Below are positions 5,379 to 18,205 of a DNA stretch of 64,000 bases, in pieces. Each line of letters opens with the position of its first letter. The first letter of the stretch is position 1. The notes under the pieces were generated by a model that made no database searches, was not told the DNA's origin, and saw nothing but the letters and a program-made list of their open reading frames with translations. Made by a program: the position numbers and the translations under genes. Origin of the DNA: an uncultured Gemmatimonadales bacterium (GTDB lineage Bacteria > Gemmatimonadota > Gemmatimonadetes > Gemmatimonadales > GWC2-71-9); contig CAVXLC010000001.1 of the NCBI GenBank assembly GCA_963762545.1, positions 279,110-343,109 on the forward strand, given 5' to 3'.

Positions 5379-6629
5379 ATGGACATAAAGCGTGAGCCGG
5401 TAAAGAACCGGAAGAAGTTCTTCCTGATCGGCGCGGGGGTTCTGGCGCTGGTCATCGTCACCATCCTGCTGAGCCGGCTCCGTCCCGCCGCTCCGACGGT
5501 GGACCTGGGCACCATCTACCTGGACACCGTGGAGCAGGGAGAGATGGTGCTCGAGGTGCGCGGCCCGGGCACACTCGTGCCCGAGGACATTCGGTGGATC
5601 ACCGCGGTCACCTCCGGGCGAGTTGAAAAGCTCAACCTGCTGCCGGGTGTGACGGTGGATGCGAACACCGTGCTGCTGGAGCTGGTCAATCCCGATGTTG
5701 AAATCGCCACGCTGAACGCCGACCGGCAGCAGACCGACGCCGAATCGCAGCTGGTCCAACTCAGGACCAGCCTGAACAGCAACAAGCTGGCGCAGGCCGC
5801 CGCGGTGGCCAACCTGCGCTCCACCTGGCTGGACGCCAAGCGCCGCGCCGAGTCGGGGGCGGAGCTGCTGAAGAAGGGGCTGATCATCCCGCTCGATCAG
5901 CAGAAGGCGCAGGAGCTGGCCGATGCGCTAGGCAAGCAGGTGGAGTTCGAGGAAGAGCGGCTCAAGATCATGACCAACACGATCGATGAGCAGATCAGGG
6001 TGCAGGAGGAGCAGGTGAGCCGGCTCAAGTCGATCACCGCGTTCCAGCACGCGCTCAAGGCGTCCATGGTGGTTCGGGCCGGCACCCACGGGGTGCTCTC
6101 GGAGATTCCTCTGCAGATCGGCCAGTATGCCCAGGCCGGCGCCACCCTCGCCAAGGTGGTGCCAATGCCGCTCCGCCTGAAGGCGGTGCTCCGGATTCCG
6201 GAGACTCAGGCCAAGGACCTGGCCATCGGCCAGAAGGCCTCGATCGACACACGCAACGGTATCCTGCCGGGGCACGTCTCACGGATTGATCCCTCCTCTA
6301 CTCTTGGAACCGTCACGGTGGACGTGGCGCTCGATGGCACGCCACCGCCCAGCGCACGGCCGGACCTGAGCGTGGATGGGGTTATCGAGATCGCCCGGAT
6401 GAAGAACGTGCTGTTCACCGGCCGTCCTCCCTACGGCCAGACCGACGCCACCATCGGGATCTTCAAGCTGGTCGAGAACGGCCACTACGCCCAGCAGGTC
6501 TCGGTGCGGCTGGGGCGGACCTCCGTGAACAGTGTAGAGATCAAGGAAGGTCTGGCCAAGGGAGACGTGGTGATCCTGTCCGACATGTCGCGTTGGGACA
6601 ATGTCGACCGTGTACGTATCAAACAATAG
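5379..6629 (+). CDS. HlyD/MacA-family periplasmic adaptor (membrane fusion protein)
   Basis: MDIKREPVKNRKKFFLIGAGVLALVIVTILL is an N-terminal TM anchor. Coiled-coil hairpin and barrel-sandwich regions follow. The gene lies directly upstream of an ABC ATPase. Confidence 0.8.
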   Translation: MDIKREPVKNRKKFFLIGAGVLALVIVTILLSRLRPAAPTVDLGTIYLDTVEQGEMVLEVRGPGTLVPEDIRWITAVTSGRVEKLNLLPGVTVDANTVLLELVNPDVEIATLNADRQQTDAESQLVQLRTSLNSNKLAQAAAVANLRSTWLDAKRRAESGAELLKKGLIIPLDQQKAQELADALGKQVEFEEERLKIMTNTIDEQIRVQEEQVSRLKSITAFQHALKASMVVRAGTHGVLSEIPLQIGQYAQAGATLAKVVPMPLRLKAVLRIPETQAKDLAIGQKASIDTRNGILPGHVSRIDPSSTLGTVTVDVALDGTPPPSARPDLSVDGVIEIARMKNVLFTGRPPYGQTDATIGIFKLVENGHYAQQVSVRLGRTSVNSVEIKEGLAKGDVVILSDMSRWDNVDRVRIKQ

Positions 6630-6674
6630 CTCCGAAGCGTTTCAGGCCCTGGTCCTTAACGAAGGAAGTCACCA

Positions 6675-7397
6675 ATGAGCACCGCGCCCGGCGAAGTCCT
6701 GATCAAGCTCGACGGCATCAAGAAGGTCTTCCTGACCGACGAGCTGGAGACCCATGCCCTCTCCGAGATCCACCTGCAGCTCATGAAAGGCGAGTATGTG
6801 TCGATCTCCGGGCCCTCCGGGTGCGGCAAGACGACGCTCCTCTCCATCCTGGGGCTGCTGGACACGCCCAGCGGCGGGACCTACACGCTGGCGGGCCACT
6901 CGGTGGAAAGCCTGACGCCCTCGGAACGGGCCCGGGTCCGGAACCGGCAGATCGGCTTCATCTTCCAGGCCTTCAACCTGATCGGCGACCTCACCGTCTA
7001 CGAGAACGTCGAGCTGCCGCTCACCTACCGCGGCATGCCTTCCTCGGAACGGCAGCAGCGGGTGACCAGCGCGCTGGAGCGGGTGGGCATGGCGCACCGG
7101 ATGAAGCACTACCCCTCGCAGCTCTCCGGCGGTCAGCAGCAGCGGGTCGCGGTGGCCCGCGCGGTGGCGGGTGAGCCGGCCATCCTCCTGGCGGACGAGC
7201 CCACCGGAAACCTCGACTCCCAGAATGGAGAAGCGGTCATGGAGCTGCTTCGCGAACTGCATCGCGGCGGCGCCACGATCTGCATGGTGACCCACGACCC
7301 CCGCTACGCCAAGTGGGCGGACCGCGAGGTGAAGCTCTTCGACGGCAAAGTGGTCGAGGAGGAATCGAGCGGCAGCCGGGTCGACGTGCACCACTAG
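6675..7397 (+). CDS. ABC transporter ATP-binding protein (MacB/LolD-type)
   Basis: Walker [10 protein letters not shown], signature [14 protein letters not shown] and Walker [13 protein letters not shown] are present. A GAAGGAAG Shine-Dalgarno sequence lies upstream of the ATG. Confidence 0.92.
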
Positions 7398-16864: not shown

Positions 16865-16891
16865 GGGGCTCCTACCTCTTACCTTTCTCAC

Positions 16892-18205
16892 GTGACGCTC
16901 GCCCACGACCGCCGGATCTTCCTGCTGGCCCTCCTCGCGGGCCTGCCCGCGATGGTCGCCGCCACGATCCTGCTCTGGCTGGTTCCCGCCTCGGGACTGC
17001 TCCGCGGCACCATCCTGGGGGCCCTGGTGGTGGGCTGGCTGGTCGCCGCGCGCGCGGCGCAGCTCCGGGTCATCCGGCCGCTCCAGGTGATCGCCAACCT
17101 CCTGGCCGGCCTGCGCGAGGGGCACTTCACGCTCCGGGCCCGCGAGGAAGAGAGCGATGATGTGCTGGGCGCGGTGCGCCGCGAGGTGAACGCCCTCCAG
17201 GAAACCCTGCGGGAACAGCGGCTGGGCGCCCTCGAGGCCGACGCGCTGCTGCGCCGGGTGATGGAGGAGATCGATGTCGCGGTCTTCGCGTTCGACGCCG
17301 AGCGGGCGCTGCGGCTGGCCAATCGCGCCGGCGAGCGGCTGCTGGGCCAGCCCGCCGAGCGGCTGATCGGACGGACCGCCGAGCAGCTCGGGCTCACCCA
17401 GACGCTGGAGGGCGACACCCCCCGCATCCTCGAGATGGCGGTGCCCGGGGCCGCCACCGGAAAGTGGGAAGTCCGCCGGCGCCCCTTCCGGCAGGGCGGG
17501 TTGCCGCTCGACATGGTGGTGCTCGCCGACATCAGCCGCGTGCTGCGCGCCGAGGAGCGCCAGGTCTGGCAGCGCCTGGTCCGGGTGCTCTCGCACGAGA
17601 TCAACAACTCGCTGGCCCCGATCAACTCCCTGGCGGGCACCCTGACCAGTCTGCTCGACCGGGAGCCCCGTCCGCCCGACTGGGAGGACGATCTGCACAA
17701 GGGGCTCGACGTGATTCGCGCGAGGAGCGACGCGCTCAACCGCTTCATGGCCTCGTACGCGCGCCTCGCCAAGCTGCCGCCGCCGACCCTGGCACCCCTC
17801 GACGTCGGCGAGTGGGTGCACCGGGTGGTGCTGCTCGAGGGACGGCGCCCGGTGCGCCTGATCGAGGGCCCCCCGGTGAGCATCCGCGCCGACGGCGATC
17901 AGCTCGACCAGGTCCTCATCAACCTGATCAAGAACGCCACCGAGGCCGCCCAGATCACCGGCGGCGCGGCCGAGGTGACCTGGGCCGTCACGGACGACAC
18001 ACTGGAGGTGGAAGTGCGCGACGAAGGACCCGGGCTTCCCACCACCGCCAACCTGTTCGTGCCCTTCTTCACCACCAAACCCAGCGGCTCGGGCATCGGC
18101 CTGGTGCTCTGCCGGCAGGTGGCGGAAGCGCACGGCGGCGGGGTCACCCTGCACAACCGGACCGACCGCCGCGGGTGCGTGGCCCGGCTCCGGCTCCGGA
18201 GATAG
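16892..18205 (+). CDS. sensor histidine kinase (2 TM with minimal loop, HAMP, PAS, HisKA, HATPase)
   Basis: Two N-terminal hydrophobic helices are separated only by PASGLLRG. H-box LSHEINNSLAPI, then N/G boxes NLIKNATEA...DEGPGLP...KPSGSGIGL. Confidence 0.88.
   Translation: MTLAHDRRIFLLALLAGLPAMVAATILLWLVPASGLLRGTILGALVVGWLVAARAAQLRVIRPLQVIANLLAGLREGHFTLRAREEESDDVLGAVRREVNALQETLREQRLGALEADALLRRVMEEIDVAVFAFDAERALRLANRAGERLLGQPAERLIGRTAEQLGLTQTLEGDTPRILEMAVPGAATGKWEVRRRPFRQGGLPLDMVVLADISRVLRAEERQVWQRLVRVLSHEINNSLAPINSLAGTLTSLLDREPRPPDWEDDLHKGLDVIRARSDALNRFMASYARLAKLPPPTLAPLDVGEWVHRVVLLEGRRPVRLIEGPPVSIRADGDQLDQVLINLIKNATEAAQITGGAAEVTWAVTDDTLEVEVRDEGPGLPTTANLFVPFFTTKPSGSGIGLVLCRQVAEAHGGGVTLHNRTDRRGCVARLRLRR

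Follow-up and report, generated by a model that had tools for sequence, protein, structure and literature searches.

The window analyzed here is a 64,000-nucleotide (nt) stretch of DNA, C1:279110-343109 of the 4.28-Mb, eight-contig genome of a soil-type Gemmatimonadales bacterium, and its closest public relatives are metagenome-assembled genomes (MAGs) of the Gemmatimonadales. At 5379-18205 it carries a block of eight plus-strand genes that encode, in order, an adaptor, an ATPase (NBD1, for nucleotide-binding domain), three permeases (P1, P2, and P3), a second ATPase (NBD2), an activator, and a kinase. We think it fairly likely that this block is a sigma-54-dependent, self-activating operon for an ATP-binding cassette (ABC) exporter of type VII (mechanotransmission) and of the MacAB-TolC kind, with a core that is probably shared among permeases.

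Gene calls and domain and family scores confirmed the gene content that an initial annotation of the same DNA had proposed. The first gene (5379-6629) encodes a MacA-like periplasmic adaptor of 416 amino acids with the Pfam domains HlyD_3 and HlyD_D23. NBD1 (6675-7397; 240 amino acids; ABC_tran, 115 bits) is a MacB/LolD-type ABC ATPase, and NBD2 (14790-15491, or starting at the ATG at 14826; ABC_tran, 104.5 bits) is a second MacB-type ATPase. Between them lie P1 (7421-9847; 808 amino acids), P2 (9855-12317; 820 amino acids), and P3 (12317-14728; 803 amino acids), the last overlapping the P2 stop codon by 1 nt (TAATG). An NtrC-type activator (15473-16864; REC, Sigma54_activat at 218 bits, and HTH_8) and a histidine kinase (16892-18205; PAS, HisKA, and HATPase_c) complete the block. 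The intergenic gaps are, in order, 45, 23, 7, -1, 61, -19, and 27 nt. If NBD2 starts at the ATG at 14826, the P3-NBD2 gap becomes 97 nt, and if the activator starts at the GTG at 15503, the gap before it becomes +11 nt; with these two starts the gaps match the range of -1 to 97 nt given in the initial annotation.

P1 to P3 are full-length members of the family TIGR03434 ("acidobacterial duplicated orphan permease," ADOP). They scored 837.6, 888.6, and 853.2 bits, respectively, all above the curated cut-off of 622.3 bits, and each match spans model positions 1-803. Each protein has two MacB_PCD and two FtsX stretches (Pfam), with N and C halves that are ~25% identical, and the description of these permeases as internally duplicated pseudo-dimers of about 800 residues therefore holds. 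Pairwise, P1 to P3 are only 35 to 41% identical and so are old paralogues. The AlphaFold2 model of P2 (113 sequences; predicted local distance difference test [pLDDT], 92.8; predicted template modeling score, 0.88) has eight transmembrane (TM) helices, two periplasmic domains (TM1-TM2 and TM5-TM6), two cytoplasmic coupling helices (residues 320-328 and 725-733), and a short cytoplasmic linker (residues 412-428). Its best full-length match in the PDB was YbbP of Escherichia coli YbbAP (9ge6_A), followed by MacB chains; the fold matches include MacB 5gko, 5lil, and 5nik and the periplasmic domain 3ftj, and the P2 sequence also matches MacB. Because YbbP has 10 TM helices and the fused permeases listed in a 2018 review of the MacB family all have two linker helices (PMC5985334), direct fusion into eight TM helices represents a further topology. 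Across ADOPs, conservation peaks in the coupling helices and the C-terminal tail (0.71 to 0.78) and is lowest in the periplasmic domains (0.41 to 0.43). Being an orphan, that is, having no adjacent ATPase gene, is a habit of the ADOP family and not a criterion of the TIGR03434 model. P1 to P3 depart from it: they lie behind an adaptor gene and are flanked by NBD1 and NBD2, with no second adaptor found in the block, just as the initial annotation had it, and no close adaptor paralogue found in the genome.

The adaptor resembles MacA much more clearly in fold than in sequence. By sequence alone the match to MacA is weak (E = 0.008), but the top PDB fold matches of its AlphaFold2 model (73-sequence alignment; pLDDT, 89) were MacA in MacAB-TolC (9qgy_G and 5nik_D; E = 1e-20), with MacA 4dk0 also among the best. 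The model has an N-terminal TM anchor (residues 11-33), a hairpin whose two helices are each ~60 residues long (105-165 and 171-228), and domains of the lipoyl, barrel, and membrane-proximal types. A MacA-like adaptor with so long a hairpin in its model points to a TolC-coupled conduit. About 13 TolC-family (OEP) genes are present elsewhere in the genome.

The catalytic motifs of both ATPases are preserved: the Walker A motif, Q-loop, LSGGQ signature, Walker B motif with its Glu, and H-loop are intact in each. The closest solved sequences to NBD1 were 5xu1_A (E = 3.5e-63) and MacB 5lil. NBD1 and NBD2 are separate proteins of 233 to 240 amino acids that are 49% identical, and 21 group-specific invariant positions separate the two (70 NBD1 and 32 NBD2 orthologues). 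Among these differences, the D-loop reads GNLH in every NBD2 orthologue versus GNLD in NBD1, and the residue after LSGGQQQ is invariably Leu in NBD2 and Arg in NBD1; the groups also differ just after the Q-loop. Such invariant differences suggest that NBD2 is a specialized, possibly heterodimeric, ATPase partner. NBD2 orthologues were found in 40 of 61 related genomes; nine genomes lack one although they carry the adaptor, NBD1, and ADOPs, and NBD2 is therefore optional. An obligate NBD1/NBD2 heterodimer was considered and is ruled out by these nine genomes, one of which is a complete single contig (4,636,964 bp).

Thus, the ADOPs of this block are, as had been claimed, tied to ATPases, an adaptor, and a regulator, in a MacAB-like set with separate ATPases. 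The likeness to MacAB-TolC (PDB 5NIK, 5LIL, and 9QGY) extends to the MacA fold of the adaptor with its N-terminal TM anchor and long hairpin, to the permease halves, which have the four-TM MacB fold with the periplasmic (Porter/Sabre) domain between TM1 and TM2, to the MacB/LolD type of the ATPases, and to the presence of TolC-family ducts in the genome. The block differs in that its ATPases are not fused to a permease and a single permease chain takes the place of the MacB homodimer. It also encodes two different ATPases and a choice of three permeases, has no linked TolC gene, and is predicted to be controlled by sigma-54 and a two-component pair. What is new relative to MacAB-TolC is thus the separate ATPases, the single-chain permeases with eight TM helices and in variable number, and the predicted sigma-54 two-component control. 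Spr0693-0694-0695 of Streptococcus pneumoniae (PDB 5XU1) likewise has a separately encoded adaptor, ATPase, and FtsX-type permease, but its permease is a homodimerizing four-TM protein and its Gram-positive host has no TolC.

The E. coli YbbAP(-TesA) system (PDB 9GE6 to 9GE8) offers a parallel for the permeases: its type VII permease is likewise a single, internally duplicated chain with two periplasmic domains and two coupling helices, and its ATPase is likewise encoded by a gene of its own. Two YbbA subunits bind one YbbP, a pseudo-dimer with 10 TM helices (YbbA:YbbP, 2:1), and together with TesA the complex pulls hydrophobic compounds out of the inner membrane (PMC12646458). This parallel, with YbbP as the best full-length structural match of P2, raises the alternative that the block encodes a type VII machine that, instead of performing efflux, takes hydrophobic molecules such as lipids or lipoproteins out of the inner membrane and passes them to a periplasmic partner, in the style of LolCDE-LolA or YbbAP-TesA. 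We regard this alternative as highly improbable. YbbP has 10 TM helices, two of them linker helices, versus eight in the P2 model, and YbbAP has one ATPase species and binds the TesA hydrolase instead of a MacA-type adaptor. In the block, by contrast, the leading gene encodes a MacA-type adaptor, the protein that accompanies NBD1 most faithfully. Domain annotation of the block and its flanks revealed no esterase or LolA-like gene within the block, nor was a TesA-like gene found there. Judging by the fold and family of the components, the function would be export, presumably in efflux or detoxification as the initial annotation proposed.

We then asked which parts of the block are conserved. 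The neighborhood, whose conservation the initial annotation had made the touchstone of its proposal, is indeed conserved across related genomes: synteny spans the Gemmatimonadota and reaches the Acidobacteriota. The adaptor has one orthologue in 50 of the 61 relatives. In 20 regions from relatives and 80 public loci, the gene order is adaptor, NBD1, and ADOPs, often followed by NBD2 and more ADOPs, and then activator and kinase; the number of ADOPs in the operon ranges from 0 to at least 6. A closer comparison covered the 45 loci in which 9.5 kb or more of downstream sequence follows the adaptor. NBD1, whose orthologues are 70 to 99% identical, adjoins the adaptor in 43 of these loci, NBD2 is present in 24, and the two-component pair is present in at least 17 (the flank being limited to 10 kb); the permease count varies from 0 to at least 4. 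The block is therefore a discrete and conserved module, as had been supposed, but its eight-gene set is not the conserved unit. That unit is the adaptor plus NBD1, which is nearly invariant, and NBD2 and the two-component pair are frequent but dispensable. Because the number of permeases in the operon varies so widely, a fixed three-permease machine is unlikely. At least seven loci consist of a permease-free core, adaptor-NBD1-NBD2-activator-kinase, with gaps too small to hold a permease. ADOP matches in these seven genomes numbered at least 39 in five, 22 in one, and 1 in one small assembly of 2.4 Mb.

The DNA upstream of the adaptor gene has otherwise diverged among 18 orthologous loci, with two surviving islands, 5200-5239 and 5312-5325 (both on the plus strand). 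The first is a nested palindrome, TGTTCG-N4-TGGGA-N8-TCCCA-N5-CGCGCA, and is a candidate enhancer (upstream activating sequence). The second, GGCACGGCTCTTCC, is a predicted sigma-54-type -24/-12 promoter element; it reads GGCACG-N4-CTTCC (GG-N10-CC here), with a spacer whose sequence varies across the orthologous loci. The palindrome sits 102 nt upstream of the -24/-12 element, the end of which is 54 nt from the adaptor ATG. In the 70 loci with enough upstream sequence, a TGGGA-N-TCCCA palindrome was present in 32 (versus 3.0% of control chunks) and the -24/-12 pattern in 27 (versus 2.3% of control chunks). Both occurred together in 20 of the 70 loci, Acidobacteriota included, and were always 100 to 103 nt apart. 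The combined palindrome-promoter motif occurs once in this genome, and the extended palindrome is likewise unique. The analysis turned up no sigma-70-like site, and rpoN is present in the genome. We read the two islands as a predicted sigma-54 promoter with its enhancer, heading a positively autoregulated operon, in line with the dedicated sigma-54 regulator that had been suggested. Another possible -24/-12 site, at 5267-5281 (TGGCTAAC...), was rejected; it is not conserved in the aligned orthologous upstream regions, and 5312-5325 is.

The -12 part of the element reads TTCC (CC) in this genus and the canonical TTGC (GC) in more distant relatives. The sigma-54-contacting loop of the activator (residues ~236 to 241) is also unusual: it reads GAFTDA, and GAFTDA or GSFTDA was found in 20 of 20 orthologues, whereas the loop is GAFTGA or GSFTGA in seven of the genome's nine other activator-like genes. 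The GAFTDA loop may go together with the TTCC element. Further matches to GGCAYG-N4-TT(C/G)C lie at C2:274281 (minus strand) and C7:200811 (plus strand), each within a few kilobases of other activator genes, and the TTCC form of the -12 element may be used more widely in this organism.

In the mechanism that we propose, the kinase would phosphorylate the NtrC-type activator, which would bind the palindrome and open the -24/-12 promoter, and this promoter would transcribe all eight genes, the activator's own included, as one unit. Each ADOP would act as a covalently fused MacB TM dimer, with its eight TM helices, two periplasmic domains, and two coupling helices, and would bind two ATPase subunits (2:1) by analogy with YbbAP and BceAB. 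It would dock the MacA-like adaptor on the periplasmic side, and the adaptor would reach a TolC-family duct encoded elsewhere. P1, P2, and P3 would be alternative pumps on the same adaptor and ATPase core, with their variable periplasmic domains setting specificity, and NBD2 would be an optional second, possibly heterodimerizing, ATPase of that shared core. Gene content, folds, conserved cis elements, synteny, and phyletic pattern are what the analysis demonstrates; transcription as one unit, the stoichiometry of the complex, the use of TolC, the sharing with orphans, and the exporting role are what we infer from these features and from analogies.

The kinase has two TM helices separated by an outside loop of only ~8 residues, followed by HAMP-like, PAS, HisKA, and HATPase_c domains. 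This architecture, with the short loop and no outside sensor domain, is kept in 19 orthologues; a sequence search with the kinase returned only close Gemmatimonadales orthologues. Kinases with very short loops between their TM helices also accompany type VII-like ABC genes in BceAB-BceRS, where the kinase is BceS (PMC5985334), and in the Vfm system of Dickeya. There, according to PMC9306890, the kinase VfmI is encoded beside the ABC pair VfmF/VfmG and the Fis-family regulator VfmH, and VfmG is a proposed co-sensor. By these parallels, the block could be mainly a sensory module, in which the permease and ATPase detect a compound in the periplasm or membrane and report it to the loop-less kinase, export being secondary. 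We consider this improbable. The Vfm parallel is one of architecture alone, and the cytoplasmic PAS domain of the kinase could sense by itself. The long-hairpin adaptor of the block points to a TolC-coupled conduit. In addition, the systems differ in their parts: BceR belongs to the OmpR type, and BceB combines 10 TM helices with a single outside domain, versus an NtrC-type activator and two periplasmic domains here, and the text that we consulted reports no adaptor for the Bce or Vfm modules. The adaptor, NBD1, and an ADOP occur without this kinase in several genomes.

If the block encodes an exporter, there remains the question of which permeases its core serves. This genome has 40 ADOP-type genes, 18 of them behind a PadR gene, and P1 to P3 are the only ones that adjoin co-oriented ATPase genes. 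Of the other 37, 35 are farther than 8 kb from any MacB-type ATPase gene, and two are near one that lies on the opposite strand and belongs to another cluster. The six other MacB-type ATPase genes in the genome each adjoin single-FtsX permease matches (judged by coordinates). We lean, by a little, toward the view that the core of adaptor and NBD1, with NBD2 optional, also energizes the ~37 ADOPs here that have no ATPase of their own.

The opposing view is that NBD1, NBD2, P1 to P3, and the adaptor form a self-contained pump whose parts work only together, and that the other ADOPs use different ATPases or none. It has in its favor that all the required parts except TolC are in one operon, and that the combined palindrome-promoter motif occurs only here, so that the orphans would be regulated separately, 18 of them by an adjacent PadR. 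We hold this view to be unlikely. Cores that lack permeases are conserved, and the genomes that have them are mostly rich in ADOPs. Permeases are also orthologous between the two settings. In a tree of all ADOPs, the in-operon permeases of relatives are interspersed with the orphans of this genome, and four permeases that lie between NBD1 and NBD2 in another genome of the same genus (G017) have their orthologues here at C3:282-303 kb, with identities of 60 to 71% versus 38 to 42% for the next-best match. That region lacks an ATPase gene; it holds PadR genes, a resistance-nodulation-division (RND) pump, and a TolC gene. The orphans keep both half-specific coupling-helix motifs, no other ATPase gene is near them, and the other MacB-type ATPase genes are, as noted, next to single-FtsX permease matches. 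Across the 61 genomes the adaptor and ADOPs occur together in 50; two MAGs, 73% and 85% complete, have ADOPs but no adaptor, no genome has the adaptor but no ADOPs, and nine have neither. Four of these nine genomes are 98 to 100% complete, and several have congeners carrying both. Together, the permease-free cores, the moved orthologues, the phyletic pattern, and the conserved surfaces favor, without proving, one core that serves many permeases.

Two ADOP clusters may be described here in their own right. At C3:282213-303102 (L131 and L132), five ADOP genes are interspersed with genes for two PadR proteins, a YbjQ-like protein, an AcrB-type RND pump, and one TolC protein; four of the five ADOPs are the orthologues of same-genus in-operon permeases. 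In the window, at 27835-33617, two tandem ADOP genes follow a PadR gene of the acidobacterial-paralogue family (TIGR03433). The downstream one (30807-33614) encodes an N-terminal perm_prefix_1 domain (NF038403), which P1 to P3 do not have, and from the one copy scanned, PadR-linked ADOPs with this domain look like a second ADOP class.

Sharing of a motor is known among importers. In group II energy-coupling factor (ECF) transporters one EcfAA'T module serves many S components, and in Streptomyces the MsiK ATPase is likewise shared. As would be the case here, the ATPase module is encoded once and many membrane specificity subunits are encoded elsewhere, but those systems are importers of unrelated folds. 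The papers that we found describe no sharing of this sort for type VII ABC exporters. A further step, which we put forward only as a speculation and think unlikely, is that the adaptor and NBD1, with or without NBD2, are the common motor and conduit for dozens of interchangeable ADOPs, and that the loop-less kinase senses the load or activity of the permeases in the manner of Bce or Vfm, so that the shared motor would be made on demand.

Several observations weigh against the reading of the block as a sigma-54-controlled, MacAB-TolC-like exporter with a shared core. The -12 element in this genus is TTCC, not the canonical TTGC, and the activator loop is GAFTDA, not GAFTGA. Genome-wide counts of GGCACG-N4-TTCC or TTGC were not above those of control patterns; because the short motif is not enriched, the support for the -24/-12 element is its conservation and its position and geometry. 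No TolC-family gene lies in or adjoins the block. Part of the co-occurrence of adaptor and ADOPs is trivial, given how often ADOPs lie in the operon, and the high conservation of the ATPases and the coupling helices is typical of any ABC family. Finally, a core made only on induction means that PadR-controlled orphans would need a second signal, which is awkward for sharing.

ADOPs were first noted in Acidobacteria, according to PMC3914696. In soil Acidobacteriota and Gemmatimonadota they form one of the largest paralogous families, and some Bacteroidota have them as well. One acidobacterium has 102 ADOP copies, of which 80 are transcribed (PMC10564751), Dyadobacter has 28 to 33 copies (PMC11573002), and Psychroflexus has a 42-kb ADOP cluster with genes for ATP-binding transporter proteins (PMC3914696). 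In the literature that we found, ADOPs are mentioned only descriptively, as numerous permeases or orphans without an assigned role. The block offers a plausible answer to which ATPase serves orphan ADOPs, and with a candidate ATPase, adaptor, and regulator in hand, the power source and role of ADOPs become a testable question. ADOPs add to the type VII ABC repertoire a single-chain topology of eight TM helices and a possible shared-motor arrangement. A shared motor, if true, would explain why ADOPs have seemed to be orphans ever since their first description, and with a load-sensing kinase it would be the first shared-engine organization described for type VII ABC exporters.

The surroundings of the block (the G+C content of the window is 66 to 72%) are unrelated to it: upstream are thiolase and FadB-like genes, a beta-oxidation pair, and downstream are genes for proline dehydrogenase and RsgA. 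Terminator-like sites at the locus were not above chance, and none falls in an intergenic gap. The P3-NBD2 gap has a stem-loop with a 7-bp stem (14729-14750; GCTTCAC-GGGG-GTGAAGC) and no T tract behind it. The proline dehydrogenase gene starts 7 nt past the kinase stop codon (18205-18213) with no terminator-like site between, and read-through from the kinase gene is possible. Proline dehydrogenase as a ninth gene of the operon was rejected, as the adjacency was seen in only one same-genus locus (L048) among those compared. Here NBD2 and the activator gene share 19 nt (15473-15491), but in two loci of the same genus (L048 and L049) a spacer of ~475 nt separates them; from this comparison, an internal regulatory region at the junction may have been lost or gained.

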